64,000 nucleotides of DNA from positions 1 to 64,000 of IMG/VR virus record IMGVR_UViG_3300037634_002636, one strand, 5' to 3'. The position numbers and the translations under genes were made by a program. Position 1 is the first letter of the stretch. Every line of letters starts with the position of its first letter. Shown one piece after another: positions 18,608 through 45,259 of this stretch. The notes beneath the pieces were generated by a model. The model did no database searches, was not told where the DNA came from, and was given only the letters and a program-made list of their open reading frames with translations. This DNA comes from a virus (taxonomy: Duplodnaviria > Caudoviricetes).

Positions 18608-18624
18608 ATCTATTTATTTTTATG

Positions 18625-18632: not shown

Positions 18633-18696
18633 TGATTAATATTCTATTTATTTGTGTTTTTTATTTTTTTTACTTTACCTTTTATTATATACCACT

Positions 18697-21600: not shown

Positions 21601-23295
21601 ATCTAAAACTTTAGTTGGACTATCTACTAACCCTAAAACTTTACAAACTTTTTTACCATTTAAATCTAAAGCAAACCCATCTGCTGTAACATCAGCGCAA
21701 TTATTAGTTAAGAAATTATAAGCTTCAACACCTTCAATATCTTCTGTTTGTATTGCTTCATAAAAACCTGCCCAATCTTTAATTTTTTTACCTTTTGTAG
21801 TTTTATAAATTGTTCCTCCAAGAACTCCTTGATCTTTTAATTCTTTAGCAGTTAAACTCTGAAGTTTAAGATGAGTTTTTAAATATTGTTGTTGATCAAC
21901 ATTAAAAACCATTGTTTGAGTTCCTTTTTGTGTGTAGTTACCTCTTGCTGTTTTACTAAAAGTTGGAGATGTTCCACTCTTTTTAAAAGAAGCCCAATCT
22001 ATAAAAAGCGTAGGATTTTTTATATTATAAGACGCTATATGAGAGGGTGGGTATCTAGAATCTTCACCCCAATCATATTTATTCACTGCTATTGTTTCCT
22101 CATTAGTTCTATGTATAATATTTCCTTTACCGTCATTTACACCGTATGTTTTTAGCTCTTGTTCTGGTGTACCAGCATAATCTACGTTTTTATGTTGGCC
22201 CTTCCAAGTAAATTGATAATCTTTTTTATCAGTATGAACAGCCCATTTCTTTGCAGCGTTATATGCCTCATCCCAAGTTTCTATATGACTCCAATCATCT
22301 AATCCATGTTCTTGCCAATTATCCCATGGAAGTTTATTAAATACATTATTAGAATATTGATTTTTATCTGTCTCTGGGTGTAGCCCACCATGACTCATTT
22401 TTATAGGCCCATTATTTTTAGTTTGATATTGAGCCGACTCTGCAGGAGCTTGTAAAGGTTTATATTTTTCATCCGTTAAAAATCTTATAATAGCACGTGA
22501 ATTAGGTTCAACAGTATGTGTCGATGTATGAAAATTAGAAATGTCTTTAAAAGTGTGAGGAGTTTTATTTATAAGTAAAGACTTAATACTAGGTTTAAAA
22601 TCTTCTTTTAAATAAGAATCATCTGGTTTATTTTGTGATTCATCTATTCCACCTCCATCTCCATATTTAAATCCACCATCTCTCCAACCAATTTTACCAG
22701 CAAGCCATTTACCTCCAGGTAACTTAGGTAATCCCCATTGACCTAGGGCTTTTCCTGGCCCTCCCCATAGACTTCCTGTTACTGTATTTTTTAACTGTTG
22801 TTTAGCTATGTCTCCAAAAAACTGTTTACCTGCTCCCCACATACCTCCTTTAGCATCCGCTGCATTATATCTATCCAGTGCTGTAGTAATATCACCAGTT
22901 CCTAACATATTACTACTACCGTATTGCAATATAGGCATTCCTATATTATCCAAAATAAAATCTCCTGCATTTTGCATCCACCCAGGTTGCCCTCCAGAAT
23001 AAGTTCCTCCACTACTACCTCCACTACTACCTCCACCAGTAGAAGTATTAGGATCTCCAGTTTGCGGATCAGGTGGATCATTTGGATCATTTGGATTAAA
23101 TGGATCATTTGGATCATTTTCTCCTCCAGCTCCATATTTTCTCACTCCACCTTCTTTATATGTTTTTATATCGTCTTCCCCGTCAAATATCTTATCCTTT
23201 TCCGCTTGTTTAAATAGATCTGTATAATCTCCTTGATAGTCTTCCGCTTTAGCAATTCGTATTATTTTAGATTTCTGACTATTATTTAGACCCAT
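18697..23295 (-). CDS. Large internal virion (cargo) protein with peptidoglycan-binding and putative murein hydrolase domains
   Basis: PG-binding-like LQEALKGKGY..DQIWGPETKKALEQW and LQQSLIANGY..TQTKEAL; permuted papain-like SHI..YNFLTNNCA; NlpC/P60-like CGAQV..GHSGLIIG..VMHG. Confidence 0.65.
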   Translation of the reverse strand: MGLNNSQKSKIIRIAKAEDYQGDYTDLFKQAEKDKIFDGEDDIKTYKEGGVRKYGAGGENDPNDPFNPNDPNDPPDPQTGDPNTSTGGGSSGGSSGGTYSGGQPGWMQNAGDFILDNIGMPILQYGSSNMLGTGDITTALDRYNAADAKGGMWGAGKQFFGDIAKQQLKNTVTGSLWGGPGKALGQWGLPKLPGGKWLAGKIGWRDGGFKYGDGGGIDESQNKPDDSYLKEDFKPSIKSLLINKTPHTFKDISNFHTSTHTVEPNSRAIIRFLTDEKYKPLQAPAESAQYQTKNNGPIKMSHGGLHPETDKNQYSNNVFNKLPWDNWQEHGLDDWSHIETWDEAYNAAKKWAVHTDKKDYQFTWKGQHKNVDYAGTPEQELKTYGVNDGKGNIIHRTNEETIAVNKYDWGEDSRYPPSHIASYNIKNPTLFIDWASFKKSGTSPTFSKTARGNYTQKGTQTMVFNVDQQQYLKTHLKLQSLTAKELKDQGVLGGTIYKTTKGKKIKDWAGFYEAIQTEDIEGVEAYNFLTNNCADVTADGFALDLNGKKVCKVLGLVDSPTKVLDAIKLKFPTMDISGRDKSAYYLLYRKYEDLLHSNNYDEVLRNSWRLVNGNDKQRSIGILQEALKGKGYKLPKSTTKLGNVDQIWGPETKKALEQWEKDSGYWNRTEKIKMHEGGIGNPGDIGYIAEHSHYNSEGEEFEWADYLNSQGDRYVSQSKGHERTELIDRSDSYISLQQSLIANGYDIELSGSMNTQTKEALHKNGEENLTHLPVWNTDWKLDEVGCTSETCGAQVTDMIMMLYGYDGIINSRKDAGAADSWFREGYMLDNGGQSIWSQKARGTYDDEGNIESGNINFPPMEVWKDFMVGDVVHLQAAGFRDMGNFSKEKRKAGEAKGYSTSYNTSVGHSGLIIGRDSSTGIPLVMHGVGGDMFVERLDKIDWHGSNDARAYVNGTEIDRTQEYVIQGVTRPAGLVNNPNAIPNYSALAPFAEKENKYILNQISFNEDYQNTLSEEELKTTNFFEQYINGYISFESDIYGGVYSNRMPDTYLLNEETIQEVYYSKYGRDKLQEEEKAYNTISYGYGAQLSQYTKNGKIYSREGGDEYITQDNITSIISDQADLAIVQRNSPITRISNVTMFNEKEVAHAASMVYGTFMRETGDIGIISNVQEGLIKTWMKEHFSPETNAQIAAFKNLDITFDENKFVTETQEHPFAPLSLRLLRGAWSATNLNEGSYMSNALSPPSEGIMRIKVPYQIFDADGMPDGEENKGKLNQLGIWYAKMGLIQEDEDGNWIHSLGSGDNLLTGIPGDRGMANSIDAAILFYLHNKHKLRQDKRYNLEDDTFDGVPADYIAIQMHNNPNYDRIAQGGKTPLEWSQEAFRTYSNFAISHSAQVNINSYKFKKALEERGEYTSSNPEGYIFEKSGPTMTTENKSEDDWKFMQSRTTDVVNKYGNVNITSDFFSKSNKYKNKIIDQLQKLSSDKGWQQAAIMIDKLKYGESLKVKHPNFSNQKIMEMIDEHFQVVQPPSKIE
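23020..23120 (-). repeat. Low-complexity coding repeats (NDP)n and (GGSS)n
   Basis: 9-nt GGATCATTT units and CCTCCACTACTA units on the + strand. Confidence 0.8.
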
Positions 23296-25615
23296 TATTT
23301 TTCTTTACTTTTACCATTGCCTTAATCTTTTTATCTTCAACTTTATTTTTAGCATTAGCTATTGTTAGATCTGTTTGATTGTCCTCTTTATTCATTTGAA
23401 CGTTTGCTTTAATTTTTTCTCTATCAACTTTAATATTTTCTTTATCTACTTGTTGTTTACGCTGTATTTCTGCAGCCTCTAAAGCAATCTTCATTTGTTG
23501 TTCTTGGTCATTAGCTTGAGCATTAATTATAGCCACTTCGATTTGAGTCATTCTATCTTTCTCTCTTTGATCTGAATCATATTGCATTTTTTGTTGTGCT
23601 ATCTCATTTTGCTGTTGAGCTATTTGGTTTTGAGCTTCTTGTTGAGCTTGTTCTAATTTTTGTCTCATAGCTTCAGCCTTACCAATTTTATCTTTGATTT
23701 TTGTAAAACTATCACTATCTATAGCTTCTGCAACAATAGACGCAGGCACTCCATTCTGAATCATAGCTTGTGCTAACATTTCTACTTTCTGTTTCTTTTC
23801 AATATCTGCTCCAGCATCTGTTATAAAGATACCATACTCTGATTCCATATGTTGTATTGGATCAACAGTTAAAAATTCTACAGCACCATCAGGTTGTATA
23901 AAAGAAGTTTTCTTCCCATCTACCCATGCTATCTTTGAATAATCTAACATAGCTTGTAAATCACTAGCTTCAAGCATAGATATTTTTCTAAAGTAATCTT
24001 CAGTAATATGAGATGATTGCATTATAGCTTGTTGTGATGTTCCTTTACCTTCATACTGACCAATAGCACCTTGTCTTTGTCTATTAACTCCTGATAATCT
24101 TTCCCACTCTCCTAATATAGAATCTAATAAAACAACATATTGCTCTATAGTTCTAATAGATAAATCCATAACAGTTTGATGTTGCGGATTCAATTGCATT
24201 CCTTCTTTATTATAATCTACCCATGCAATACCAGTGGCATCAATATAATACATAAACTTATCCATATCCCATTTTTTAGGAATCATATTAATATCAAACT
24301 GAGCAATAATATCTTTAGATTTAGCAATAGCTACTTCTAATCTATATTTATATATATTATAATTTATCTGATATGGTAGTCCTAATTTAACTAATGATAT
24401 ATTATCTGAATTAATCTCTGAATATTTAATTCCATTAACAGGTAATTTACATACAGATGGATTATCCATAGACCTTCTTTGATTTCTTAACTTTCCTATT
24501 TTACAAAATATTTTTTCTCCAATTTTTGTCCCTTCCCACACTTCTGGTATCCATCCCCAATCTAATACTGCGCCTTGTTGTTTTAATGCGGACGGTAATT
24601 TATAACCGTCTGGAACTTCTATTGTTTCTATATCACCTGTATTTGGGTCAGGATAAGATAAAAAACCTACTCTAGAAATACTTTTCCAGTATACTGTTAC
24701 ACATTCAATAAGTCTTGACCTTCCTCCCCTTACTCTATCATTAGATGGATTAACAGAATGTATTAAGAATGAGCCGTCATCAAATACTTCTGGAGATTCT
24801 AATTGATCAATTTGAGCATCCGTTAAATTCTCTCTATATGTATCTACTATAGTACTTACATGCGCATCTTTTCTGATTAAAGCCCAGTCTCCATCTTCTA
24901 TTAACTCTACATCTGGATCTTTATCATAATCTACGTCCAAAGGATTAATAATATCATAAAATGGTTCTTTATTTCTTACCCCTCTATGACTATAAGCTTC
25001 TCCTGACACTAAGAAGTGAAACCATAACTTTTGAAATTTATCATATATATTCTCTTTATACATCAAATAACTAATACTATTCTGTCCTATGATTGCTCTT
25101 TGATCTACATAACTTGCATTAAACATGTCAACTACATGTTGAGGCATCTCTGTCTCTTGTGAAGGGCTTCCTGTTTGTTGCCCCATTTGATTAAGTTGAT
25201 TAACAAATCGTTGTTGCATAATTTGCATTACTTTTTGTTTTCTTATTTCTTCTTTTTGGGAAATGGTATCCGCATTAGCAACAGCTACCGTATAATTAAG
25301 AGGTCTTTTAGATTTTTCTCCTAATAATAGATCTACGACAGGTTTGATAATAGGATAATTTCTGATCTTGGAAGGGAAGTTACGTCTTGCTTTACCATAT
25401 GGTTTTAAAACGTAATGATAATCATCCTCTAATATATGACCATTATAAAAGTCATATAATTGTTGAATGTCGCCTCTGCGGGAACCAAATCCACCAATAT
25501 CTGATAAACTAATATAAGCCTCTATACATTCTTCTCCCCATTTCTGTGTTTTTTTAGAGGTTGGTATTTTTTGTTTTGGTATACTATGATGTGTCTGTGT
25601 AAAGTCTATTGCCAT
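23282..25615 (-). CDS. Portal protein
   Basis: 777 aa adjacent to TerL; YPIIKPVVDLLLGE, EVWEGTKIG and LSGVNRQRQG motifs; Q-rich coiled C-terminus (P22-like portal). Confidence 0.88.
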   Translation of the reverse strand: MAIDFTQTHHSIPKQKIPTSKKTQKWGEECIEAYISLSDIGGFGSRRGDIQQLYDFYNGHILEDDYHYVLKPYGKARRNFPSKIRNYPIIKPVVDLLLGEKSKRPLNYTVAVANADTISQKEEIRKQKVMQIMQQRFVNQLNQMGQQTGSPSQETEMPQHVVDMFNASYVDQRAIIGQNSISYLMYKENIYDKFQKLWFHFLVSGEAYSHRGVRNKEPFYDIINPLDVDYDKDPDVELIEDGDWALIRKDAHVSTIVDTYRENLTDAQIDQLESPEVFDDGSFLIHSVNPSNDRVRGGRSRLIECVTVYWKSISRVGFLSYPDPNTGDIETIEVPDGYKLPSALKQQGAVLDWGWIPEVWEGTKIGEKIFCKIGKLRNQRRSMDNPSVCKLPVNGIKYSEINSDNISLVKLGLPYQINYNIYKYRLEVAIAKSKDIIAQFDINMIPKKWDMDKFMYYIDATGIAWVDYNKEGMQLNPQHQTVMDLSIRTIEQYVVLLDSILGEWERLSGVNRQRQGAIGQYEGKGTSQQAIMQSSHITEDYFRKISMLEASDLQAMLDYSKIAWVDGKKTSFIQPDGAVEFLTVDPIQHMESEYGIFITDAGADIEKKQKVEMLAQAMIQNGVPASIVAEAIDSDSFTKIKDKIGKAEAMRQKLEQAQQEAQNQIAQQQNEIAQQKMQYDSDQREKDRMTQIEVAIINAQANDQEQQMKIALEAAEIQRKQQVDKENIKVDREKIKANVQMNKEDNQTDLTIANAKNKVEDKKIKAMVKVKKNNGSK

Positions 25616-25617
25616 AA

Positions 25618-27588
25618 TTAAAATATTTGTCTATCAAAAAATTCATCAAGAGCTCTATCTTGATATAAATCTGTTACCTCAGCATTATATAATTCTCTAG
25701 TATGATACATACCGATCATTAACGCCATAACTCTATCAAAGTTTCCTTTATGATTGAATTTAGTTAATTCTTGTATTAATGCTGGGTCATAGATCTTTTG
25801 CAAATTTAGTAATTTTTTTCCATCTACGTCTACTCCTCTCAATGAATTTAACCAATCCCTTATATATATCTCACCTTGTTGTTTCCTTGCTTCTGTCATA
25901 TGCATACCATATGTCCTTCTAACACGTCTAGACTGCAATTCTTTCTTGTCTAACATTTCAAATTCTGGTTGCAATTTATGCAACTTTCTATATCTTTTTG
26001 CGTAAGCTATTATCTCTCCACGATCATTCTCAAATCCTATCTTAGCGTTATAATAATCTGCTAACATAAAAAGATTACGATTATAATCATCTTGAGTTGC
26101 AGGTCTACCTACATAAGATGCTACAATTATATCATCTGGCTGTGATAAATTATTAGGCCTCTTTAATACATATGCAGCACCTAATGATGATGAGTCAGCT
26201 GATTGATTCTGTCCGTAAGGGTCATGACATATTACATATAAATTATGCGGTGTAATATTTTCCTTATTTCTATAAGGTGATTCATATATAACTACACATC
26301 CAGTATTATTATCATCTTTCCTATGTGGAAATTTTAAAACAGGTCTTAAATCATAATCAGGTTTAAATTCTACTTGTTCTTTTTTATAATATAAGCTACC
26401 TGGAGTACCTTTAGTATGTAAGTTATTGGCTTTCAGGTTATTATAATGTTCTTGTAAAGATGCTACATCAAATAAATTAGATGTAATTTGTAAAGTAGCT
26501 TCTTGAGGGGAGAATGGGTGTTCTGCGATGTATTGATCTAATGATTTTGCATCTGCAGCACCTTTCTTCTTTTCCCTCATTTCTATTTCATATTCTATTG
26601 CTTCTTCCGCTTGTGAGTTACCATTACCATCTATAAACCCATCTAAATTCTTTTGTATTGGAATAAAATATCCGCATCTTGTTCCTAAAGCTCCAGCATC
26701 CCATTCATTTTCATAATCCATACAATCATATGCAGCTGGATTATAAAATATTTCTTCCATAGCTTCAAAATCAGCACCTTCTGTACCACCTGTACCAAAC
26801 GCTATCATCATACCTAATGTCTTTGCCCCTTGTCTCATAGTAGGCATTGTTACCTCCCATGCTTTTAATAATCCTGGAAAAGATCCTGCCTCTTCAAAGA
26901 AAACTAATTCACCTGCCTTTCCCCTTACTTTGTCTGGAGCATCCTTTAAAGATACCCCCATTATCTGAGATTTCATACCCATTTCTATTTCAATACCATT
27001 AACTTTCTTTTTATATCCAGACATTTTACTCATTTCTCTGTCCCTTAATCTAGGTTGAGCCCATGCTGTATTATCATCTATAAATGATAAAAACTCCCAC
27101 GCTTTAGATAAAAGTCCATCTCCAATTAAATATTCTTTTTGTCCTGCAAACACAAAGTTTTTTGAATTTTTAACAAAGAAATAATTACGAGCTAACATAG
27201 ATCCTGCTTTATAAGAGTATCCTTTACGCCTAGCTTTAAGCACAATCATATGCCTATTCTCTGATCTAGCTTTATCTATTTCTTGAAAGTATTCCCAATC
27301 TCCATCATAAAAAGCAGGAAAGGTTCTTTCACGTTTAGATTGAATTGTACCATCTGGTAATACCTCATCTACCGCTCTATCAATAGGACAATAATTTAAA
27401 TAAAAGTAATGAAATCCTGTAACATATAATTCATCTATTTCGTATCCATACATACACCTTTTAGCTTCTTCATCCCAAAAATCATAATAATTTTTAGTAT
27501 TAGGTAAAGCATCTGTATAATAACCATGTTCTTCAAAGAATTTGGCCGCAGGCCTTATCCTATCTATGTTTTTGAACTTTTCTGACAT
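25618..27588 (-). CDS. terL: Terminase large subunit
   Basis: Walker A KARRKGYS, Walker B LVFFEEAG, coupling motif FGTGG, RNase H-like ICHDPY and FDRVMAL. Confidence 0.92.
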   Translation of the reverse strand: MSEKFKNIDRIRPAAKFFEEHGYYTDALPNTKNYYDFWDEEAKRCMYGYEIDELYVTGFHYFYLNYCPIDRAVDEVLPDGTIQSKRERTFPAFYDGDWEYFQEIDKARSENRHMIVLKARRKGYSYKAGSMLARNYFFVKNSKNFVFAGQKEYLIGDGLLSKAWEFLSFIDDNTAWAQPRLRDREMSKMSGYKKKVNGIEIEMGMKSQIMGVSLKDAPDKVRGKAGELVFFEEAGSFPGLLKAWEVTMPTMRQGAKTLGMMIAFGTGGTEGADFEAMEEIFYNPAAYDCMDYENEWDAGALGTRCGYFIPIQKNLDGFIDGNGNSQAEEAIEYEIEMREKKKGAADAKSLDQYIAEHPFSPQEATLQITSNLFDVASLQEHYNNLKANNLHTKGTPGSLYYKKEQVEFKPDYDLRPVLKFPHRKDDNNTGCVVIYESPYRNKENITPHNLYVICHDPYGQNQSADSSSLGAAYVLKRPNNLSQPDDIIVASYVGRPATQDDYNRNLFMLADYYNAKIGFENDRGEIIAYAKRYRKLHKLQPEFEMLDKKELQSRRVRRTYGMHMTEARKQQGEIYIRDWLNSLRGVDVDGKKLLNLQKIYDPALIQELTKFNHKGNFDRVMALMIGMYHTRELYNAEVTDLYQDRALDEFFDRQIF

Positions 27589-27863
27589 TTTTCTTTAATC
27601 TTTACTAGTTCTGAGCACTTTTCATATTCTTCAGTTGATGTAAAATACTCTATAAGAATATCAATCATATCAGGTGTTCTACCATCTTCTTCCATTGGAT
27701 TAAATGGTAAAGGAAAAGTAATTTTATTCCCATCCTCTAACTCATAATAAATATCATCTAAAGTTCTTTTTCTAGTTATTAGATGATATGCATTATTCAT
27801 TGCAGTACCGTAAAGTTCTAAATCTTCTTCATATTCTTTATGTTTTTCTTGCCATTCTTCCAT
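27564..27863 (-). CDS. Hypothetical protein with UvrB/UvrC-type coiled motif
   Basis: C-terminal LIEYFTSTEEYEKCSELVKIK. Confidence 0.6.
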   Translation of the reverse strand: MEEWQEKHKEYEEDLELYGTAMNNAYHLITRKRTLDDIYYELEDGNKITFPLPFNPMEEDGRTPDMIDILIEYFTSTEEYEKCSELVKIKEKCQKSSKT

Positions 27864-28378
27864 TACATACTATATTTATTTACTTCTACTCCACCTCTAT
27901 TACTATTAGCAGCTTGTTCTTCTTTTCTAACTATATCCTCTAATCTACTTAATCCATCAACTACTTTACCCATCTTTTCTAGATTATTTATTAAATCTTT
28001 AGCATGAAATATAGGTTTACCATTATCATCCATTAAAGTTAAATCTATATCTCTAAAATATTTTTCTAGTTTTATAATAGATTCTCTAGCAGCCTTTAAT
28101 AACTTAACTGCTGAGGTTTCAGTTAGCTCTGCATACTTTTCACAAGCTGCTTTAACCTTAGATGTTTCTTTCCATTTCTTGGCAAATATACTATTTTTTA
28201 CCTCATCTTTACGTTGAATCCACTCATAAACTGCATATGGAGATCTATAATCTATCATAAAGTATACATATGCTAGAGACCTAGCATCCAAATCTTTGAA
28301 TTCTAATACAGTCTTAGCATACGCAGATGGTATAGCTTTGTTATCAACTATTGTTAATAGATCCTTTGTTAGCTTCAT
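27863..28378 (-). CDS. Conserved crAss-like protein upstream of TerL (possible small terminase)
   Basis: Position upstream of TerL; LAYVYFMIDYRSPY and C-terminal RGG. Confidence 0.5.
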   Translation of the reverse strand: MKLTKDLLTIVDNKAIPSAYAKTVLEFKDLDARSLAYVYFMIDYRSPYAVYEWIQRKDEVKNSIFAKKWKETSKVKAACEKYAELTETSAVKLLKAARESIIKLEKYFRDIDLTLMDDNGKPIFHAKDLINNLEKMGKVVDGLSRLEDIVRKEEQAANSNRGGVEVNKYSM

Positions 28379-28583
28379 TTTTTAACTTAGTTATATAATT
28401 AACTCTATTCTTATTAACTGAGAACTTACCAAAATATGGTAATCTTATTGTTTCAAATTTTCCTTTCGCCATTATATCAGTAACGAATTTAAATTGATAT
28501 GTTACAACTCTTTCAATAATATCAATAGAAAGTTCATACTTATTAGCTAAAGAGTATATTATATCTTTTTTATTCTTTAGCAC
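28344..28583 (-). CDS. HU/IHF-like DNA-binding protein
   Basis: KKDIIYSLA... and IRLPYFGKFSV (HU/IHF FGxF motif); crAss-like capsid modules are known to carry IHF genes. Confidence 0.75.
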   Translation of the reverse strand: MLKNKKDIIYSLANKYELSIDIIERVVTYQFKFVTDIMAKGKFETIRLPYFGKFSVNKNRVNYITKLKNEANKGSINNS

Positions 28584-28944
28584 GCTCCTCTACACTCCTT
28601 AAACTAGCTTGGTGTTTTTTATAAATTTCTATTTCTGCTTTATATTCCTTATCTTCTAATTTAGCTCTTAAAGATTTCTCATCTGCATTCATCGTTAACT
28701 TATTCCATTTAGGTGGATCATCAGGACATTTTGATGTCTGCCATTTAGCTTTTACTGGCATATGACACCCACATAAATTACATGAACTATTTTGTTTGTA
28801 GTGCTCACATTCTATACACAAAGACATTCTTTCTTCATATTGTTCTTCTGTGCATATCGGAGCCCCTTCTTTTAAAAACTGTACAGACTCTTCAGCAAAG
28901 GTCTTAAGCATTTTAAGGAAAGATCGTGTTTCTGTCTTCTTCAT
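28570..28944 (-). CDS. Cys-rich metal-binding protein (DUF6171-like)
   Basis: RMSLCIECEH..CNLCGCHMPVKA..CP..KW. Confidence 0.6.
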   Translation of the reverse strand: MKKTETRSFLKMLKTFAEESVQFLKEGAPICTEEQYEERMSLCIECEHYKQNSSCNLCGCHMPVKAKWQTSKCPDDPPKWNKLTMNADEKSLRAKLEDKEYKAEIEIYKKHQASLRSVEERAKE

Positions 28945-29041
28945 ATTTTGTATTTTGCATATCTATACGCACACATGTTCCATCATAAGATTGATAAATC
29001 GTAAAATATATATCTTCATTATAAGGATATATAAAAATCAT
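28913..29041 (-). CDS. Small hypothetical protein, 42 aa (below ORF-track cutoff)
   Basis: MIFIYPYNEDIYFTIYQSYDGTCVRIDMQNTKYEEDRNTIFP fills the gap between neighbouring genes. Confidence 0.4.
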   Translation of the reverse strand: MIFIYPYNEDIYFTIYQSYDGTCVRIDMQNTKYEEDRNTIFP

Positions 29042-29048
29042 AAATAGA

Positions 29049-29396
29049 TCAGTTGCGTCTGATATTAATTTCAACTTTATTTGTTTTAATGTCTAATATA
29101 GAGTTAATTCTATACTTTTTATTCTCATATAATATAGCTCCCTTATCCTTTAATCTCTTAACATAGTTATTTAATGTTCTATAATCATCTACTTTAAGTA
29201 GTTTAGCTACTCTTTTTTTATTAGATGCACTACATAAATTAATATCTGTATCTAAAGATGTGTCTAATAAAGAGGATAATACCTCTAATTCCATCATAGT
29301 TAAGTCAAAAATGCCATTCCAGATTTGAAGAGCCTTTATTGTATTATTTGCGGTTATCGTTAATTTTTTCATTAAATTCAATTTTTGCTTTTCCAT
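29049..29396 (-). CDS. Winged-helix DNA-binding protein (RepL-like)
   Basis: LTMMELEVL...KRVAKLL...TLNNYVKRLKDKGAI wHTH pattern. Confidence 0.55.
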   Translation of the reverse strand: MEKQKLNLMKKLTITANNTIKALQIWNGIFDLTMMELEVLSSLLDTSLDTDINLCSASNKKRVAKLLKVDDYRTLNNYVKRLKDKGAILYENKKYRINSILDIKTNKVEINIRRN

Positions 29397-29607
29397 CTAC
29401 AATCTTTATCTTAGAGTTCTTTGCTTGGTTATTATATTCAATTACATAAGGTTCTATATCCTCACGTGTACATATAAAAGATAGAAATACTTCTATTTCT
29501 TTAGACGCTGCATGTAGATTATTGCGAATTATATTAACTTTAGGATACTCCTCTTTAAGTTTAGTGAAGTCTCCTAAGCTAATAGTTACTGTTCCAATTA
29601 CTTCCAT
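29344..29607 (-). CDS. Hypothetical protein
   Basis: ORF track; coupled to neighbouring genes. Confidence 0.65.
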   Translation of the reverse strand: MEVIGTVTISLGDFTKLKEEYPKVNIIRNNLHAASKEIEVFLSFICTREDIEPYVIEYNNQAKNSKIKIVDGKAKIEFNEKINDNRK

Positions 29608-29870
29608 TAAAATGTACCTAATACTTGGAATTCTTGTATTAATAAATAATTACAGTCCTCTATAGTAGAACGAACCGCCTCTGTACGGGGATCAATTAAT
29701 ACAGTATCACCTGCTTCAACAAATTTACAGTCTGGGCCCACTTTAAGCGCCTCTAATACATTAGTTGACTGCGCTTTAGCAGCAGCTTCACCTAATATAA
29801 TACCTGATTCTGTTTTAGTTTTGGTAGGATCTGGGATAAGGATCCAGTTTCCATTTGGTGTAAATTTCAT
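29607..29870 (-). CDS. groES: Co-chaperonin GroES (Cpn10)
   Basis: FTPNGNWILI, mobile loop KTESGIIL, VGP..VEAGDTVL, YLLIQEFQVLG. Confidence 0.88.
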   Translation of the reverse strand: MKFTPNGNWILIPDPTKTKTESGIILGEAAAKAQSTNVLEALKVGPDCKFVEAGDTVLIDPRTEAVRSTIEDCNYLLIQEFQVLGTF

Positions 29871-29888
29871 AGTTTATATATTTTTTGA

Positions 29889-29919
29889 CAAAGATATAAA
29901 CTATTTCTTTATAAACAAA
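29889..29919 (-). promoter_or_regulatory. Bacteroidota promoter (-7 TATCTTTG with upstream TTTG)
   Basis: Minus strand TATCTTTG at 29896-29889 and TTTG near 29915-29918. Confidence 0.75.
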
Positions 29920-29934
29920 TATTTTTTACAATTT

Positions 29935-30150
29935 TTATTCTTGTATCCAAGCAGAAGAATTCACTATTGCTAATATTTCCTCGTGAGTATATTGGTGTAG
30001 ACCTGTTAAAAAATTAGGAGTTTCACCTATAAATTTTAATACTGTTTTTGTTCCATCTAAAGATAATCTTAATGTATCTTGACTTATTTCTCTTACTTGA
30101 GAAAAATCAATACTTGCTATATTTGTCATATCATAAATTACATATATCAT
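29935..30150 (-). CDS. Small phage protein associated with the LamG gene
   Basis: IDFSQV...TLRLSLDGTKTVLKF...YTHEEILAI..W; coupled to the LamG gene. Confidence 0.7.
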   Translation of the reverse strand: MIYVIYDMTNIASIDFSQVREISQDTLRLSLDGTKTVLKFIGETPNFLTGLHQYTHEEILAIVNSSAWIQE

Positions 30151-30161
30151 ATCAATATTTT

Positions 30162-30908
30162 TTAAGGTACAGCTGTTGTTATATCTCCACTAACCATATT
30201 TGTCATTGTTCCGTCGTTACTGTTAGAACTGTCATCAGGTATTGTTGGGGATGTAGCACCATCACCCATTCTCCAATAACCAACCAATCCTGTATGTGAT
30301 GATAAGTCAGTTGGTGTCCCGCTATTATAAATATCTGTTACTTGTGCTGATGATAACTCTATATTAAATAACGCAACTTCATCTATGTCCCCATCTAAAT
30401 AAAACGAGTTCATTTCAGAAGAAGCAATCCTTAAAGCAGAAGTTGTGTTTTCCATTGCTGTATATGTCCCTGAAGATGTTTGGGTTTGTGTTGGGGACGA
30501 CCCATCTTTATAAATAGTTATCCCTGTCTGACTGCCACTACCATCATAAGTAAAAGTATAATAAACCCAACTTCCTGTACTAACTACATCATCCAGTTGA
30601 CATTGTATATAAGCATTAGTGCTCTGGTCATACAATCTAAATCTTAACTTATCAGTATGACCAGAAAGAATATGATACTCTTTAGTAGATGATCCTGCCT
30701 TTGCACAAAATGGCTGTTGTGATGGGTCATTTAATTTAACCCACATTGATATACTAAAAGAGCTATCTGTTGAGCCATCACCAAAAGAAAAATCATTACT
30801 ATCACCGCAGTCTATATAATCATCAACACCATCAAAGTTTATTGACTTGATATTAGAAAATCCACTAATAGCTCCACTAGTACTTAAACTTGCTCCTAAT
30901 CCTAACAT
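30162..30908 (-). CDS. LamG/concanavalin A-like virion protein
   Basis: SINFDGVDDYID, FSISMWVK, GDIDEVALFN and LVGYWRMGDG motifs; N-terminal MLGLG. Confidence 0.85.
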   Translation of the reverse strand: MLGLGASLSTSGAISGFSNIKSINFDGVDDYIDCGDSNDFSFGDGSTDSSFSISMWVKLNDPSQQPFCAKAGSSTKEYHILSGHTDKLRFRLYDQSTNAYIQCQLDDVVSTGSWVYYTFTYDGSGSQTGITIYKDGSSPTQTQTSSGTYTAMENTTSALRIASSEMNSFYLDGDIDEVALFNIELSSAQVTDIYNSGTPTDLSSHTGLVGYWRMGDGATSPTIPDDSSNSNDGTMTNMVSGDITTAVP

Positions 30909-30911
30909 TTA

Positions 30912-31199
30912 TTATTTTTTATATGCTAATACTTTACCAGCAGTTACTAAATATATAGATGTAAAATTACCATATATCGTTACTCCTTTTGGAATTATAA
31001 AGTCTGCCCCATTAGTAATATTAGTTGTACATGCTGAATGATCTATTGTAGAGTCTTCTAAAGCTGTAACCGCAAAAAACGGTCCTGCGTGCAATGCACC
31101 TACAGTTGGTATTAATACCGTTTCACTAGGTTGTATTGCTGATCTTGTATTATTTTTTACATCATTTATTAATGCCTCTTGTTCTGTTCTTATTGCCAT
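30912..31199 (-). CDS. Small beta-rich virion protein, paralog of 2342..2695
   Basis: Alignable C-terminal two-thirds. Confidence 0.7.
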   Translation of the reverse strand: MAIRTEQEALINDVKNNTRSAIQPSETVLIPTVGALHAGPFFAVTALEDSTIDHSACTTNITNGADFIIPKGVTIYGNFTSIYLVTAGKVLAYKK

Positions 31200-31231
31200 T
31201 TTTTTATTTTTTATTTTAAAAAAGATATAAT

Positions 31232-31462
31232 TATCCCCCTTTGGGATTCTTTTTCAAGTTTAGATTTCCGTTTAGCAGTGCTCCAATGGACCTAGGGATA
31301 ATAAGACCGGTGTTAATTCACCACACATACTTATGTGTACTCTACCCCAACTAAATTTTATACTTAACTCTTTTGCAACTACCGGAGAAAACTCTAATCC
31401 TTATTTAGGATCTACAATCCGATGTCTTTGCCCTTTTATGGTTACCAGGGGCTGAAATTGTT
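31232..31462 (-). ncRNA. Candidate large structured RNA (leader of the late operon or stand-alone ncRNA)
   Basis: GC-enriched intergenic island directly downstream of a TATCTTTG box, with at least 7 nested helices found by manual folding (see findings). Confidence 0.55.
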
Positions 31463-31468
31463 GCGGTG

Positions 31469-31476
31469 CAAAGATA
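31469..31476 (-). promoter_or_regulatory. Bacteroidota -7 box driving the structured RNA/late operon
   Basis: TATCTTTG(C) on the minus strand. Confidence 0.7.
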
Positions 31477-31545
31477 AAATAAAATAATTGATATAAAAAA
31501 ATAAAATGGGAAAAAAATTTTTTTAATTTGTTATTGAGTGTGTGA

Positions 31546-31589
31546 AGGTCCCCAAATGTAACCCCTATCGGGAATAGTGATTGGGACCT
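31546..31589 (+). promoter_or_regulatory. GC-rich hairpin ahead of the first early gene (candidate vRNAP promoter or terminus signal)
   Basis: AGGTCCC...GGGACCT inverted repeat at the divergent strand switch. Confidence 0.35.
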
Positions 31590-31654
31590 CCTCCCCTTCA
31601 TATTCTCAAATTTTTACATTTTGTAAAGATACAGAATAAATACATACTTAATTT

Positions 31655-32002
31655 ATGGCAACAAAATCCGTATTAGCTAAACCATTGTCTATTGACAAAA
31701 TCAGAAAGGAAATAGACAATTACATTAAAGAAGGAAGAACAACAGCCTTTGGTGGTGGAACTAAATTACCGTTAGATACGACTGATAAATCAGCGACTCT
31801 TACAGGTAACTATGAAAATATTCCTTACACTAATGCAAGTGGTGAAGATAAAGTTCTTACTCTTGCTGAGTTCAAATGTGGTACTATCTTAGATACGACT
31901 GCAGTAAACCATTCAGATACTAGATTGGTAAAAGGTACAAAAATTCTAGTTTCTGTAAAAGAAATATCAGGACAAATGCGAAACAGAATAGAATTTGTCT
32001 AA
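31655..32002 (+). CDS. Early hypothetical protein (possible OB-fold)
   Basis: ORF track; first gene of the plus-strand block, with its own terminator. Confidence 0.75.
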   Translation: MATKSVLAKPLSIDKIRKEIDNYIKEGRTTAFGGGTKLPLDTTDKSATLTGNYENIPYTNASGEDKVLTLAEFKCGTILDTTAVNHSDTRLVKGTKILVSVKEISGQMRNRIEFV

Positions 32003-32015
32003 TCATTTCACAATT

Positions 32016-32042
32016 AAGGGAGAGTAATTCTCCCTTTTTTTT
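32016..32042 (+). terminator. Rho-independent terminator
   Basis: AAGGGAGA-GTAAT-TCTCCCTT followed by a T-run. Confidence 0.85.
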
Positions 32043-32278
32043 AAATGAATGCAACTTATTATGTCGTGAGAGTGTACACCAACGCTCTCACAGGCATTTT
32101 AAGCATTTATAATTAACTATGTATTTCAGGAGTATTAAATAAATATAACACAAACAACAGTTGAGGTAAAGTGGAGTGTCCATATAGATCATAGAACAAC
32201 CACATCTAAAATAACTCTGGGACATGTAGTAAACTTACTGTTGTTTTATAAAATAGAAAGGACGTGATAATCGTCGTA

Positions 32279-32348
32279 TTCCTAGGCATGAAGACAAAAG
32301 GCTTTTTAACTAACCTTGACACAGACGAGACAACTGGATAAAACTGTC
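32279..32348 (+). promoter_or_regulatory. Two tandem H-type pseudoknot-like motifs in the 5' leader
   Basis: TTC-CTAGGCAT-GAA-GACAAAAG-GCTT and CAG-ACGAGACAA-CTG-GATAAAAC-TGTC. Confidence 0.45.
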
Positions 32349-32358
32349 ACTAATTATT

Positions 32359-32835
32359 ATGAATTCAAATGAAAAAAATGTTGAACTATTATACCAGGAC
32401 ATGGATACTAAGTTTAACAAAAACTATTATCGTAACAAATATGTAGAAACAACTAATAAAATTGCACATATGACTGGCACAATAGTAGATCTTCAACAAC
32501 AGTTAATAACAGCAAAAGATAGAATAGATATTCTTAAATCAACTAATAGCACTTATAAAAAGACTATAATGCTAAAGGATGGTAATGAAGCACTTCATAA
32601 CTTATTTTCTAAAACAGAAATAGAGTTAATAGAATATAAGAACTATCTTAAGACAGCACATTGGAAGATAAACAATTTAGAACAACAATTATTAGAAAAA
32701 CAAGATGAGTTATTAAAAGCTCATTTTATAATTCAACATCTTACAGAAGATGTAGATGTTATAGATCTAATGAAAAGAGTTCAAGAAGTAAGAAAACAAA
32801 GAGAACAAGATCGTTTGGAAGACCAAGCGATGTAA
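32359..32835 (+). CDS. Early coiled-coil protein
   Basis: ORF track; heptad-rich. Confidence 0.75.
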   Translation: MNSNEKNVELLYQDMDTKFNKNYYRNKYVETTNKIAHMTGTIVDLQQQLITAKDRIDILKSTNSTYKKTIMLKDGNEALHNLFSKTEIELIEYKNYLKTAHWKINNLEQQLLEKQDELLKAHFIIQHLTEDVDVIDLMKRVQEVRKQREQDRLEDQAM

Positions 32836-32840
32836 TAATT

Positions 32841-32880
32841 AACCTTGATAAACAGAAGAGTCAACTGGATAACACGGACA
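32841..32880 (+). repeat. Near-copy of the 32312-32349 intergenic motif
   Basis: AACCTTGA..ACAGA.GAG.CAACTGGATAA.AC.G.CA shared between the two sites. Confidence 0.85.
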
Positions 32881-32889
32881 ACAAAGACA

Positions 32890-33063
32890 ATGACAATTAA
32901 AACAGAACATGAATTCATACCACATTGTGGTATTGGATTAGGAACAGCAAGTAGATTAAGACATGGATGGAATTGGTATGGTATAAATATTCAATTACCA
33001 TTTATCATGATTTGTATCTTACTTAAATGGAGTGATGCAGATAAAGCAACAACAAATTTATAA
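32890..33063 (+). CDS. Small early protein (ATG 32890 preferred over TTG 32845)
   Basis: MTIKTEHEFIPHCGIGLG...; the upstream TTG lies inside the repeated intergenic motif. Confidence 0.6.
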   Translation: MTIKTEHEFIPHCGIGLGTASRLRHGWNWYGINIQLPFIMICILLKWSDADKATTNL

Positions 33064-33137
33064 CAATGTGCCTAAGTAAGCCTAAACTGCTTGTAGTACT
33101 ACATTTTGTAGTATTATAATTATAAACCTTGACAGAT

Positions 33138-33803
33138 ATGAACAAAAGACAAGAAGTCAACTATTGTGTTTCAGGCACAACAGGACGTAAAATAGCACCT
33201 TATACTAGTATGTATAAGCCAAAACCTGAAAACTGGTTCAAAAGAAACATACGTTATCCTTATAATGCAATATTAACGTGGTTAGCTTGTATTGGAACAG
33301 TAATAACAATATTACTATTACTAACATCATGTAGTATGCCTCCAAAATGTGGAGATCCAATAGGCGAGTTTAATAATGTTATAGTATATTATAATGATGG
33401 ATTTAATTCATGCGATGATAGACATTTTGCAAGTGATGGATATTCATATGGTATGAAATGGCAATGTGTTGAATACATTAGAAGATACTACAAAGATGTA
33501 TTTAATCATGAAATGGTAAAATGGGGACATGCTAGTGGATATTTTGATAAAACTGTTGAAAATGGTGATCGAAATACTACACGAGGCTTAACTCAATATT
33601 ATAATGGTATGGAAAAACCACAAGTACATGATATTGTAGTTTGGAACGGTAAATATGGTCATGTTGCAATTGTAACTGAAGTAACAGATGATTATATAAC
33701 TGTAATTGCCCAAAATATTGGAGCTCAATGTATAAATAAATTAGAATTAGAAGGTAATACAATTGCACCTGGTTTTAATGTTCTTGGGTTATTAAGATTA
33801 TAG
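33138..33803 (+). CDS. Membrane-anchored/lipoprotein CHAP-domain amidase
   Basis: TM segment ending in lipobox-like LLLTSC; CHAP motifs GMKWQCVEYIRRY and YGHVAIV; ATG at 33138. Confidence 0.8.
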   Translation: MNKRQEVNYCVSGTTGRKIAPYTSMYKPKPENWFKRNIRYPYNAILTWLACIGTVITILLLLTSCSMPPKCGDPIGEFNNVIVYYNDGFNSCDDRHFASDGYSYGMKWQCVEYIRRYYKDVFNHEMVKWGHASGYFDKTVENGDRNTTRGLTQYYNGMEKPQVHDIVVWNGKYGHVAIVTEVTDDYITVIAQNIGAQCINKLELEGNTIAPGFNVLGLLRL

Positions 33804-33943
33804 AAAGTAGTACTTTATTAGCGTAAAGTAACAGACAGGTAGAGGTGACTCTATGAATAAAAACAAGTATTACAACAAGACATAATTGCTAGCGCAAAAA
33901 CTATTGTTGTATATTAAATTACATTTATATGGTATGCAAGCAG

Positions 33944-33951
33944 TATATTTG
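33944..33951 (+). promoter_or_regulatory. Bacteroidota -7 box
   Basis: TATATTTG in an intergenic region. Confidence 0.5.
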
Positions 33952-34120
33952 TGAGCCTGTCTACTACTTTTTATATTAAAATATACAGAATAGAATGAGT
34001 AAAATATTTCATAATATCACTTATTTTGTCGTAAGAGGTTGCGATTCCATCTCAATTCTATTCTATAAAACACAAGTATTACGCACATAAAATGAATGTT
34101 AAATTAAATAAATCAAAGAG

Positions 34121-34348
34121 ATGAAAATCAAGATTAAAGGTGTTTGTGTTGACATAAACAGACCAAGAACTCAAGAAGATTTAAACAGATTACTAAATGT
34201 GTGTAAGTCAGAAGCCTCGACAGCTTCAGGAGCAAGAAAACAATTTATTCATATGATTATTAAAATGATTGATAGCAAACTCACGAAAGAGTACTATTCA
34301 TCAACTAAAATAAATATATATGAAGAAAAAACAGTTAAACTTGCGTAA
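34121..34348 (+). CDS. Hypothetical protein
   Basis: ORF track. Confidence 0.6.
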   Translation: MKIKIKGVCVDINRPRTQEDLNRLLNVCKSEASTASGARKQFIHMIIKMIDSKLTKEYYSSTKINIYEEKTVKLA

Positions 34349-35024
34349 CTCTGGTGATGCAGAATCATTAGAACAAGATAATAGTCTTTTACAAGCTGTT
34401 ATCAAAACAAACTCAGAAGCTGGACTTCTTCAGATTAGGTTACTAGAAATAGTAGCACCTGATCCTGAAGAGTCTAGAGATCTGAAACAATTATTTCAAT
34501 CAATAACGAGAGCTGATAATAATGATCGTAAACCAAGACATGCATATATGCCAATAGGTTATGCAGAGTTAGAAGCTTTTTTTGGTATTAAAATATCAGA
34601 AAGAAGTGATTGGAAAATAAACAAAAGAGGTAAAGAAGAGTTAACATTAAATATGCTTAATCCAACATTTATTAAATCATTTAATAAAGGTAAGAGATTA
34701 AGAGTACAAGTGAGAGAGTCAGTATATCCTAAAGATGAATGGCAAGCAGATCATGCTGATGATGAAGTTAAAATAAATCCATCAACCGGACAAAGATATT
34801 ATTATGAAGGACAATATATATTTGCTAATTGTTTTATAGTTGTAGGTAAACCCAAACATATATGGTTAGCTGCTGATGCAGATTATAGAGAAAAAGGGAC
34901 ATTTAAATTAGACACAAAAGATAAAACTAAATTTGAAGATTTAAGTTGGTCTCCTCCAAAGAATATTATAATTCCAAAAAAAGGTTCATTTGATGATTTG
35001 CGAAAAAGTTTAGAATTATCATAA
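34320..35024 (+). CDS. Hypothetical protein
   Basis: ORF track, 234 aa. Confidence 0.75.
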   Translation: MKKKQLNLRNSGDAESLEQDNSLLQAVIKTNSEAGLLQIRLLEIVAPDPEESRDLKQLFQSITRADNNDRKPRHAYMPIGYAELEAFFGIKISERSDWKINKRGKEELTLNMLNPTFIKSFNKGKRLRVQVRESVYPKDEWQADHADDEVKINPSTGQRYYYEGQYIFANCFIVVGKPKHIWLAADADYREKGTFKLDTKDKTKFEDLSWSPPKNIIIPKKGSFDDLRKSLELS

Positions 35025-35062
35025 AAATTTTAATAAATACACTGTTATATTAAATTTCTTTG

Positions 35063-35070
35063 TATATTTG
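35063..35070 (+). promoter_or_regulatory. Bacteroidota -7 box
   Basis: TATATTTG(C) in an intergenic region. Confidence 0.7.
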
Positions 35071-35076
35071 CATAGA

Positions 35077-35192
35077 ATTGTAATAAAATTTAATATACAT
35101 AAATGTTAACTGATTGAGTTTAAATGGTTTATATAGACTACGGCTATTTAACGCTACTGAAACCAGGGGAAGAAATTCCTCTGGTTTTCTTT
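35077..35192 (+). ncRNA. Candidate trans-acting sRNA (~115 nt)
   Basis: Bounded by a -7 box and a strong terminator; the central hairpin displays a seed complementary to the MCP 3' UTR. Confidence 0.5.
35160..35192 (+). terminator. Rho-independent terminator
   Basis: AAACCAGGGGAA-GAAA-TTCCTCTGGTTT followed by TCTTT. Confidence 0.8.
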
Positions 35193-35197
35193 ACTAG

Positions 35198-35290
35198 ATG
35201 GAAGAAATAATAAGAAATATAATAGCGGCTTTTATAGTATTCATAATACCATTATGTATTATGTATGATAAATTACGCAATAAAAATTAA
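35198..35290 (+). CDS. Small membrane peptide, 30 aa
   Basis: MEEIIRNIIAAFIVFIIPLCIMYDKLRNKN. Confidence 0.4.
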   Translation: MEEIIRNIIAAFIVFIIPLCIMYDKLRNKN

Positions 35291-35295
35291 AATTT

Positions 35296-37182
35296 ATGAT
35301 ATATTTTGTTGGACCTGAAACAGTATTGTCATGTTGTGAAGTTGCAACTATGGCTGATGTTGTTAAATATTGTAGTGGTAAAAACTACTTAGGTGTGGAT
35401 ACAGAAACTGAGGGTTTAGACTTTACCTGTGATAAGATGATAATGTTTCAAATAGGTGATGGGGACAATCAGTTTGTAATAGATACACGACATGTTAGTA
35501 TAGAACCATTAAGGTCAGTTCTAGAAGATATTAACATTCAAAAGATCTTTCATAATGTTAAATTTGACTACAAATTCATCAAGAAATGGTCAAACATTAC
35601 TTGTCAAGGGGTGTGGGACACATTTCTTGTTGAAGTAGTCTTAAACTGCGGTAAAAGAATAGGTTTTGGATTAAAAGATTTAGTTAAAAGATATTGTAAT
35701 GAAGAACTAGATAAAGAAGTAAGAAGCAAGTTTATTGGAGCAAATAAACAATTATTTATAGAGTCTCAAATAATTTATGGTGCTAAAGATATATCATACT
35801 TAAGTAGTATTAAATGGGAACAAGTGCATAAATTAACTAAACTACAATTGGGACCAGTTGCTAATCTTGAGAATGAAGCAGTACTTGCGTTTGCTGACAT
35901 TGAATATAATGGATTAGATTTAGATATAGATAAATGGAAATCATTAGAATCAGAATCTATATTGAAAGCAAATGCATTAGCTATTAATTTAGACGCATTA
36001 GTACTTGAAAACTCTAAATTAGACAAATTCATTAAAACACATATTCAAGCGGATATGTTTAAAAGTCTTGATGATATAAGAAAGATAGATGTTAAATGGA
36101 CATCACCTAAACAAGTATTAGAGGTATTTAAAACTCTTGTACCTGATTTAGATGATGTAAATGGTAAGAATATGTATAAACATAGATTTAAACATGAAAT
36201 TATAGATACTTATATTAGATATAAAGAAGCTATGAAATTATGCACATCTTATGGAGATGCATTTCTTAAGAATGTTAAAAATGATAATAAAATCCATACC
36301 AATTTTCACCAAATACTAGACACAGGACGTGTTAGTAGTAGTAAACCTAATATGCAACAGATACCTGCAGATAATAAATATAGAAATTGTTTTATAGCTC
36401 CTCAAGGTTGGAGTTATGTATCTGCAGATTATAGTTCACAAGAACTGAATGTAATCGCCTTTGGATCTAAGGATCCGGTTTGGTTGGAGGCTTTAGAAGA
36501 AGGTCAAGACTTACATTCAACATGTGCAGAATTAGTTTATGGTAAAGATTGGATGGAAAGTGGAGAAGATAATTGTGCTTACCTTAAGAAAAAGGAAAAG
36601 TGCAATTGTCCTTCACATAAAAAACTTAGAACAAATGTCAAAACAATCAATTTTGGTCTTGCTTACGGTATGGGTCCTAATAAGCTTGCTGATACCCTTA
36701 ATATTAGTGTGGACGATGCTAAGCTTCTTATTAAGAAGTATTTTAAAGCTTTTCCTGCTATTAAAGGGTTCTTAGATAAATTAGGTTCATATGGTGTTAG
36801 ATATGGTTATATCAAAACATTTCCACCTTATAATAGAAAAAGATGGTTTACTAACTGGTATCCTAAGATATGGGATAGTAGAGCATCTAAGTTAGAGCTT
36901 GGTACTATTGAACGAGCTTCAAAGAATACACCAATTCAAGGAGCTAGTGCAGATATGACTAAACGTGCTTTAATATTAATGCGTGAGCACATACAAACAT
37001 TTGATATTCCTGTTAAAATGGTAATGACTGTACATGATCAGATAGATACTATATGTAAGAATGATTATATAGATCAATGGAAAGAGGATATTAAAATGAT
37101 AATGGAATGGGCAGCTGATGAAATAGTAACCAACAAACTATTAAAAGCTGAAGCAACAGTAAGTAATTGTTGGGAGAAATAA
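35296..37182 (+). CDS. polA: DNA polymerase family A with 3'-5' exonuclease
   Basis: Exonuclease motifs GVDTET, FHNVKFD, YGAKD; TGRVSSSKPNMQQIP; motif A ADYSSQEL, motif B KTINFGLAYG, motif C VHDQI. Confidence 0.95.
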   Translation: MIYFVGPETVLSCCEVATMADVVKYCSGKNYLGVDTETEGLDFTCDKMIMFQIGDGDNQFVIDTRHVSIEPLRSVLEDINIQKIFHNVKFDYKFIKKWSNITCQGVWDTFLVEVVLNCGKRIGFGLKDLVKRYCNEELDKEVRSKFIGANKQLFIESQIIYGAKDISYLSSIKWEQVHKLTKLQLGPVANLENEAVLAFADIEYNGLDLDIDKWKSLESESILKANALAINLDALVLENSKLDKFIKTHIQADMFKSLDDIRKIDVKWTSPKQVLEVFKTLVPDLDDVNGKNMYKHRFKHEIIDTYIRYKEAMKLCTSYGDAFLKNVKNDNKIHTNFHQILDTGRVSSSKPNMQQIPADNKYRNCFIAPQGWSYVSADYSSQELNVIAFGSKDPVWLEALEEGQDLHSTCAELVYGKDWMESGEDNCAYLKKKEKCNCPSHKKLRTNVKTINFGLAYGMGPNKLADTLNISVDDAKLLIKKYFKAFPAIKGFLDKLGSYGVRYGYIKTFPPYNRKRWFTNWYPKIWDSRASKLELGTIERASKNTPIQGASADMTKRALILMREHIQTFDIPVKMVMTVHDQIDTICKNDYIDQWKEDIKMIMEWAADEIVTNKLLKAEATVSNCWEK

Positions 37183-44853: not shown

Positions 44854-45259
44854 AAATGCAGTAGCTAGTTCTTATAAAGGAATAAAGTTTAGATCAAAAT
44901 TAGAATTATTCACTTATAAAAAATTAGAAGAAGCTGGTATTAAATCATTATATGAAAAGAAAAAATTCATATTAATGGAAGGCTTTCGTTTTAGTAATAG
45001 GTCTGTAGAACCTCATAAAAGTAAAGGATATATAGACATGACCACCAAAATTAGAGATATAACATATACTCCTGATTTTGTGGATCCTAATGGTGCTTGG
45101 ATAATAGAAGTTAAAGGCTTTGCCAATGACGTCTTCCCACTTAAGTGGAAATTATTTAAACAACATCTTATGGATCATGGTCATGGCTATGTCCTTTTTC
45201 TACCAAAGAATCAAAAGCAAGTTCTAGAAACAATAGAACTAATCAAACAAATAGGTTAA
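44801..45259 (+). CDS. PD-(D/E)xK endonuclease (T7 endonuclease I/DUF1064-like resolvase)
   Basis: FRSKLE, YTPDF, IIEVKG. Confidence 0.8.
   Translation: MYKVMRRYKKRPKNKKVRNAVASSYKGIKFRSKLELFTYKKLEEAGIKSLYEKKKFILMEGFRFSNRSVEPHKSKGYIDMTTKIRDITYTPDFVDPNGAWIIEVKGFANDVFPLKWKLFKQHLMDHGHGYVLFLPKNQKQVLETIELIKQIG

Follow-up and report, generated by a model that had tools for sequence, protein, structure and literature searches.

Among the phages that infect Bacteroidota of the gut and the sea, the crAss-like phages rank with the most abundant. In other phages, two regulatory RNAs resemble what is described here: the OOP RNA of lambda is 77 nt long, has its own promoter and terminator, adjoins the replication genes and acts via RNase III, and the c4 RNA of P1 and P7 is processed from its target's own operon and blocks a ribosome-binding site. 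Regulators derived from 3'UTRs, in turn, carry a conserved motif just before a terminator; to our knowledge, few regulatory RNAs are known whose target is a 3'UTR adjoining an intra-operon terminator. Within the crAss-like phages, regulation by RNA is essentially undescribed. The virion RNA polymerase of phi14:2 transcribes the replication module early, whereas the middle and late genes are transcribed by the host polymerase; abundant non-coding RNAs arise in the replication module, at the g004-g006 junctions, and persist late, and the capsid mRNA is the most abundant transcript (bioRxiv 10.1101/2020.03.07.982082). Like the RNA proposed below, these transcripts are non-coding and originate within the replication module, and the phage is likewise a marine crAss-like one; unlike that RNA, they are long and intergenic, their function is undescribed and no target has been proposed for them. 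They were the only, and unexplained, non-coding transcripts that we found in the crAss-like phage literature, and a full-text search returned no description of an RNA of the present kind for these phages, in agreement with the earlier note on this DNA, which had known of none.

The window analysed here, a single stretch of 64 kb, is the first part of a 93-kb virus record. Minus-strand structural genes occupy positions 1 to ~31.2 kb, a Crassvirus-type major capsid protein among them, and are followed by a replication block on the plus strand that includes a family A DNA polymerase gene (polA). The closest GenBank phages by protein share only ~30-33% capsid identity, and DNA searches of GenBank phages gave no match; the phage DNA is, however, present in marine metagenomes, and the public runs listed as containing it include no RNA run. 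From this occurrence, the type of capsid protein and its low identity to GenBank entries, we conclude that the source is an uncultured marine crAss-like phage. At such a distance (closest GenBank capsids ~30% identical), no sequence relation to the phi14:2 RNAs is to be expected, nor is the phi14:2 RNA-seq transferable to this phage. Just upstream of polA, where the earlier note had placed a small regulatory RNA, lies a short unit that, judged from its sequence and from comparison with relatives, is the probable partner of the capsid 3'UTR in an antisense RNA pair. The features concerned are the following.

35063 to 35070, plus strand: Bacteroidota-type -7 promoter box TAnnTTTG, invariant in 11 relatives; presumed transcript start at ~35077
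35077 to 35095, plus strand: conserved 5' segment with a small palindrome or hairpin at the presumed transcript start; one covarying pair
35120 to 35151, plus strand: hairpin H1, a 10-bp AU/GU-rich stem with a 12-nt loop, from folding and one compensatory pair
35130 to 35142, plus strand: 13-mer antisense to the capsid 3'UTR, identical to 15962-15974, with an invariant 10-nt core at 35133-35142
35148 to 35154, plus strand: second complementary block of 7 nt, identical to 15985-15991, kept in 9 of 11 unit variants
35159 to 35192, plus strand: intrinsic terminator, a 13-bp GC-rich stem with a U-tract, from folding and covariation
35198 to 35290, plus strand: small hydrophobic ORF of 30 aa, starting 6 nt past the unit terminator
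35296 to 37182, plus strand: polA, family A DNA polymerase with a 3'-5' exonuclease domain, from Pfam and PHROGs matches
16010 to 17446, minus strand: major capsid protein gene (Pfam PF23898, Crass_capsid, E 7e-82; PHROG major head protein)
15950 to 15991, minus strand: motif of the capsid mRNA 3'UTR, with the 13-nt site at 15962-15974 and the 7-nt site at 15985-15991, from conservation
15905 to 15948, minus strand: terminator hairpin behind the capsid gene (hairpin 15916-15948), from fold and conservation

The unit (hereafter type A) opens with a box of the TAnnTTTG type, the consensus of the Bacteroidota -7 promoter element. It is of the same type as the boxes upstream of the phage structural genes and is invariant among the relatives, in line with the proposed host-type promoter, which is presumably active. 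Intergenic plus-strand boxes of this type number only two in the whole replication block, the other, at 33944-33951, lying inside a 500-nt stretch that holds tiny ORFs only (33803-34320). The palindrome at 35077-35095 could be an operator or a 5' stabiliser. Further downstream, the arms of H1 (35120-35129 and 35142-35151) enclose a loop at 35130-35141, which is predicted to be unpaired with a probability of 0.81; the proposed stem that presents a seed in its loop is thus recovered, and it is a weak one (-4.2 kcal/mol alone). The 7-nt block falls partly within the 3' arm of H1, so that the stem must open for this block to pair. The unit closes with a stem at 35159-35188 followed by a U-tract: at -18.2 kcal/mol alone, and with covarying pairs, it is the strong terminator that had been claimed, and fold and covariation support it even though a simple consensus scan missed it. 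Rfam covariance models gave nothing near gathering score at either the unit or its target, and ARAGORN found no tRNA.

A scan for promoter boxes found none between the unit terminator (35192) and polA, and relatives that lack the unit carry the same box ~25 nt before polA. The unit is therefore also a leader, running without an intervening promoter into the operon formed by the small ORF and polA, and a role in cis is possible too. Accordingly, the description of the locus as a phage sRNA holds for a conserved, non-coding unit running from promoter to terminator; that it is free-standing is not supported. Both the position and the want of a downstream promoter would equally suit a purely cis-acting element, that is, one that serves the polA operon as leader or attenuator or affects stability, its H1 loop being read by a protein and the complementarity to the capsid message coincidental.

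Relatives were collected by polymerase searches and DNA patterns in viral and metagenome contigs, yielding 11 distinct versions of the type-A unit. The promoter box, H1 and the terminator hairpin are kept in all 11, and the U-tract in 10. Among these versions the H1 stem contains one compensatory exchange (U-A to C-G), which speaks for structure at the RNA level, and the terminator stem several compensatory pairs. The loop of H1 reads NNN followed by nine invariant bases (positions 4-12), and the G that closes the stem is invariant as well; divergence is far greater from the promoter to H1, in the flanks and in the polymerase (71-84% identity). The 30-aa ORF downstream (35198-35290) is retained as an ORF in all type-A relatives; its amino-acid sequence is not.

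Conservation of this kind might reflect a coding sequence, as an ORF of 28 codons (35125..35211) starts in the 5' arm of H1, is ATG-initiated in nine of the 11 versions and keeps a similar N-terminus of ~10 residues. Its behaviour among the relatives is nonetheless not that of a functional small protein. In two variants the ATG has become ACG, with the stem kept by a compensating change across it, and a premature stop is present in one of these two; the terminator loop contains a 2-nt indel that shifts the reading frame, and the C-terminal halves are in different frames; and changes are mostly non-synonymous, while the wobble positions of three consecutive codons never vary. The lost start, the frame shifts and the invariant wobble bases place the constraint on nucleotides and not on a peptide, in line with the original description of ~115 nt devoid of a convincing ORF, and we consider a functional ~28-aa product very unlikely. 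We are confident, in contrast, that the unit is a real conserved non-coding element.

The putative target lies on the minus strand between the capsid stop codon and the terminator hairpin at 15916-15948. Most of 80 related loci have a recognisable copy of its motif in the capsid 3'UTR, directly 5' of the terminator hairpin, and such copies extend to a capsid identity of ~72%; the motif is thus conserved far beyond the clade that carries the unit. In some clades the capsid stop codon falls within the first bases of the motif. Within the window's own clade, the core, which runs from the 13-nt site to the terminator, does not vary, differences being confined to a 2-nt deletion in one locus and a few substitutions in the flanks. 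Clades that have no unit at all still keep the motif, which must therefore have another function of its own; it is an unexplained element that deserves study in itself. Its structure departs from what had been proposed: the target is mostly paired, with a predicted unpaired probability of 0.35 as against 0.81 for the H1 loop, and neither the MFE nor the centroid structure places it in a defined loop. Neither a looped target nor a kissing-loop geometry is therefore upheld. Past the capsid terminator, the promoter-box scan found three genes without a box of their own, which puts this terminator inside an operon, where it probably determines how much capsid protein is made relative to the head proteins encoded downstream.

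Several further elements near the capsid terminator, or resembling the motif, were recorded. Between that terminator and the next gene (15830-15905, minus strand), AGT(T)ATTCTT is followed after ~10-20 nt by AAAAGAAC, shortly before the ATG; the block is kept in many clades (at the same place in L017-L096), is repeated in L082 and may be a phage-specific translation or promoter signal. In the replication block, an 11-mer complementary to the capsid 3'UTR motif (45027-45037) lies directly upstream of an ATG at 45038; by count it is at chance level, and its position is like that of an sRNA target. Finally, the short 5'UTR of a late gene, just past a TATCTTTG box (29868-29896, minus strand), resembles the antisense of the motif, as do sites in several genomes (a 12-mer in G001 near 14751, and G017 near 65516); the region is AT-rich and the likeness possibly due to chance.

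Both matches that had been pointed out between unit and capsid 3'UTR are exact: 35130-35142 is identical to 15962-15974 and 35148-35154 to 15985-15991, on the same DNA strand and ~19 kb apart. Since the capsid gene is on the opposite strand, a transcript of the unit would be antisense to the capsid 3'UTR, and the two blocks together give a predicted duplex of -26.2 kcal/mol. The variants listed for four metagenome runs over 15700-35400 included none at either site, an uninformative outcome. The repeat of a 13-mer is, by itself, at chance level, as the window contains 240 direct pairs of identical 13-mers (a Markov model gives ~165) and 249 inverted ones; the commonness of such repeats in an AT-rich genome is a further point for the purely cis-acting reading. 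Several comparisons single out the capsid site more sharply. With unit and UTR defined beforehand, a match to the unit of at least 13 nt occurred in only 4 of 5148 other windows of the genome (0.08%), and the best duplex partner of the H1 loop in the 93-kb genome, on both strands, is the capsid UTR site. None of 40 shuffled loops did as well anywhere in the genome, the best shuffle coming close (-16.8 versus -16.9 kcal/mol for the real loop). Under lax Smith-Waterman scoring, the similarity of unit and UTR is not outstanding. The scan with the unit loop also returned a 17-bp duplex with three G.U pairs at a plus-strand site near genome position 78,885. A likeness of the capsid 3'UTR to helix 69 of 23S rRNA, judged by eye, is partial, is not kept in 8 of the 11 loop-flank variants and was set aside.

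Two identical copies in the same DNA orientation might also be expected if both bound a single phage DNA-binding protein. Such a shared double-stranded site is hard to reconcile with a sequence that is not palindromic, with a spacing between the two blocks that is 5 nt in one copy and 10 nt in the other, with the covariation of the H1 stem at the RNA level and with the fact that the other unit types, described below, share a different part of the UTR motif; we regard it as extremely improbable.

Among the four genomes in which both sites are available, the match of the type-A unit to its own UTR spans 13, 13, 11 and 10 nt. The first three bases of the loop occur in four versions, with no compensation in the type-A target, which never changes within this clade. 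A loop variant beginning with ATA would pair at 13 of 13 positions with the UTR variant of L032 and L061. The seed of 13 nt put forward in the earlier note has, then, to be shortened: its 10-nt core is invariant in the 11 variants and its first three bases are not, so that the supported seed consists of 10 nt plus the 7-nt block. That three loop bases vary freely is also what a purely cis-acting leader would allow.

The same locus is occupied by other units in relatives of other clades. In two genomes (G008 and G024), a different arrangement of promoter, leader and terminator (type B) is found at the same position upstream of polA: downstream of a ~210-aa gene and upstream of a small ORF and polA, it has a box of the same type, ~110 nt and a terminator, and its middle part is antisense to the motif of its own capsid UTR, which itself differs from that of the window. 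The G024 copy agrees at 25 of 26 nt, apart from two 2-nt insertions, and extends into the base of the capsid terminator stem. Under stringent scoring, the UTR match ranks first of 2218 windows in G024 and sixth of 5110 in G008; with whole-unit RNAduplex, the capsid UTR comes second in G008 and about fourth to fifth in G024, though these duplexes are loop-rich and inflated and the ranks only supportive. The type-B leader also has a stronger partner ~3 kb upstream on the same strand, which pairs perfectly over two blocks, of 11 and 7 bp, arranged in inverted order; the two sites are at 31283-31320 and 34350-34375 in L166/L167 (G024) and near 5299 and 2600 (minus strand) in G008. This partner sits at the start of an ORF-free, GC-richer region of ~600 nt and also resembles a motif of a capsid 3' end.

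A third unit (type C; G011 and G015) lies upstream of three small ORFs and polA. Here the antisense block is in the single-stranded linker before the terminator: in G011 it is a perfect 13-nt antisense of the genome's own UTR, in G015 a single A-to-G change keeps the pairing as G.U, and in each contig the 13-mer occurs in those two places only. The per-genome fractions expected by chance are 0.001-0.004 for types B and C and 0.0008-0.004 over all three types. The three types match overlapping but shifted parts of the same UTR motif, a pattern that fits antisense pairing and not a common protein-binding site. Where no unit is present upstream of polA (G012, G016 to G019 and G007), no credible match was found, nor any complementary site of at least 11 nt on the correct strand; apparent matches, a 12-mer in G007 (located in coding DNA) and 8 plus 10 nt in G017, fell in coding DNA or on the untranscribed strand and were discarded.

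As the complementarity recurs in three unit architectures and three clades, it looks selected, and we judge, from these sequence comparisons, that it probably is. One contig, L158, stands apart in combining a type-B unit with a UTR and late region of type A. The match is hence not obligatory, unless the contig is recombinant or chimeric; it is either a natural recombinant with a degraded match or an assembly chimera. In L158 and L159, the 656-aa structural protein and the capsid 3'UTR are identical, and the polymerase genes and leader types differ, which indicates module exchange between phages or chimeric assembly. The mixing of types in L158 is one more argument for a unit that acts in cis and merely happens to match the capsid UTR. 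Against it, such coincidence would have to have arisen three times, at the same genomic position and with the same UTR motif, each at a fraction of 0.0008-0.004. On this evidence, a purely cis-acting leader with fortuitous complementarity appears improbable.

The explanation that we favour, on balance and on sequence evidence, is that a non-coding RNA of ~115 nt pairs with the capsid 3'UTR and acts in trans on the capsid message. A host-type promoter would drive this RNA, which would end at the strong intrinsic terminator; the invariant 10-nt sequence would be displayed in the loop of the weak hairpin H1 and, aided by the 7-nt block, would base-pair with the capsid 3'UTR motif in vivo. Between the capsid gene and the next head genes stands a terminator, and the paired site would fall a few bases before it; the short RNA may alter 3'-end stability or read-through at this intra-operon terminator and so may link the replication block to the dosage of late genes. 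By analogy with phi14:2, the box at 35063 would be active together with the late genes and give mostly terminated RNA of ~115 nt that coexists with the capsid mRNA; the box type that it shares with the structural genes fits co-expression with late mRNAs.

The direction of action may alternatively be the reverse, with the late capsid 3'UTR, or a processed fragment of it with the terminator hairpin, regulating the polA leader. Pairing over the start of the short leader ORF or over H1 would then change termination in the leader, and the operon of the small ORF and polA would be shut off or boosted late in infection. Much in the arrangement is compatible with this: no transcript of phi14:2 is more abundant than the capsid mRNA; the motif is placed just before a terminator, as in 3'UTR-derived regulators; all three unit types are leaders with no promoter past their terminator, and unit-less relatives carry the same box directly upstream of polA; and the antisense block of types A and C extends over the initial codons of a short ORF that reads through the terminator. 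Yet no conserved antiterminator fold was found, the leader ORF has lost its start in two variants, and the complementary sites of at least 11 nt that a conserved UTR seed should have in the unit-less clades were not found there on the correct strand. One candidate antiterminator, in which the 5' arm of H1 pairs with the 5' arm of the terminator over 6 bp, looked covarying in two variants; it is lost in L142 and L146 and was rejected. We therefore hold regulation of the polA leader by the capsid message to be rather unlikely, if the most serious of the alternatives. Action of the short RNA on the capsid UTR is preferred because the UTR motif, as judged from unit-less clades, has a function of its own that would be open to modulation, and because a conserved UTR seed would call for further targets, none of which was found.

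In either direction, a conserved antisense pair in which the polA leader is tied to the most abundant late message at its 3' end would constitute a testable circuit of temporal control. More broadly, it is an evenly balanced matter whether this marine crAss-like lineage as a whole keeps an RNA-RNA axis from the replication module to the capsid message, in which RNAs encoded upstream of polA, in at least three architectures (loop-borne; small-loop or extended; linker-borne), address one ancient motif. If it does, the motif would be a control point for the dosage of the capsid operon or for the late shut-off of the replication genes.

The proposed pair has a number of partial counterparts. With the OOP RNA of lambda it would share a short RNA antisense to the 3' end of another phage message; OOP, however, is cis-encoded and fully complementary, whereas here the partners are 19 kb apart and complementary over 10-13 plus 7 nt. 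Like c4 of P1 and P7, it would be a phage RNA acting in trans via short, exposed, loop-borne complementary blocks, but the target here precedes a terminator in the 3'UTR of a different operon, on the other strand. GadY of Escherichia coli, which pairs with the gadX 3'UTR, and other 3'UTR-targeting sRNAs are alike in that the pairing affects processing or stability and not the initiation of translation; GadY differs in being cis-encoded and bacterial. The attenuation systems of the plasmid rep genes (pT181, pIP501 and pAMbeta1) combine a terminator-bearing leader before a replication gene with an antisense RNA that contacts a leader loop, a likeness that fits regulation of the polA leader by the capsid message; their RNAs, however, are cis-encoded and they need alternative leader folds, whereas no conserved alternative fold is seen here. 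CopA/CopT and RNA I/RNA II resemble the pair in the presentation of the recognition sequence by a loop, from which the duplex could extend into the second block, but in those systems both partners are looped and here the target is not predicted to be. The present pair thus differs from all of these systems: it would be trans-encoded, its target is a 3'UTR motif that adjoins an intra-operon terminator, and its own place is the leader of a polymerase gene.
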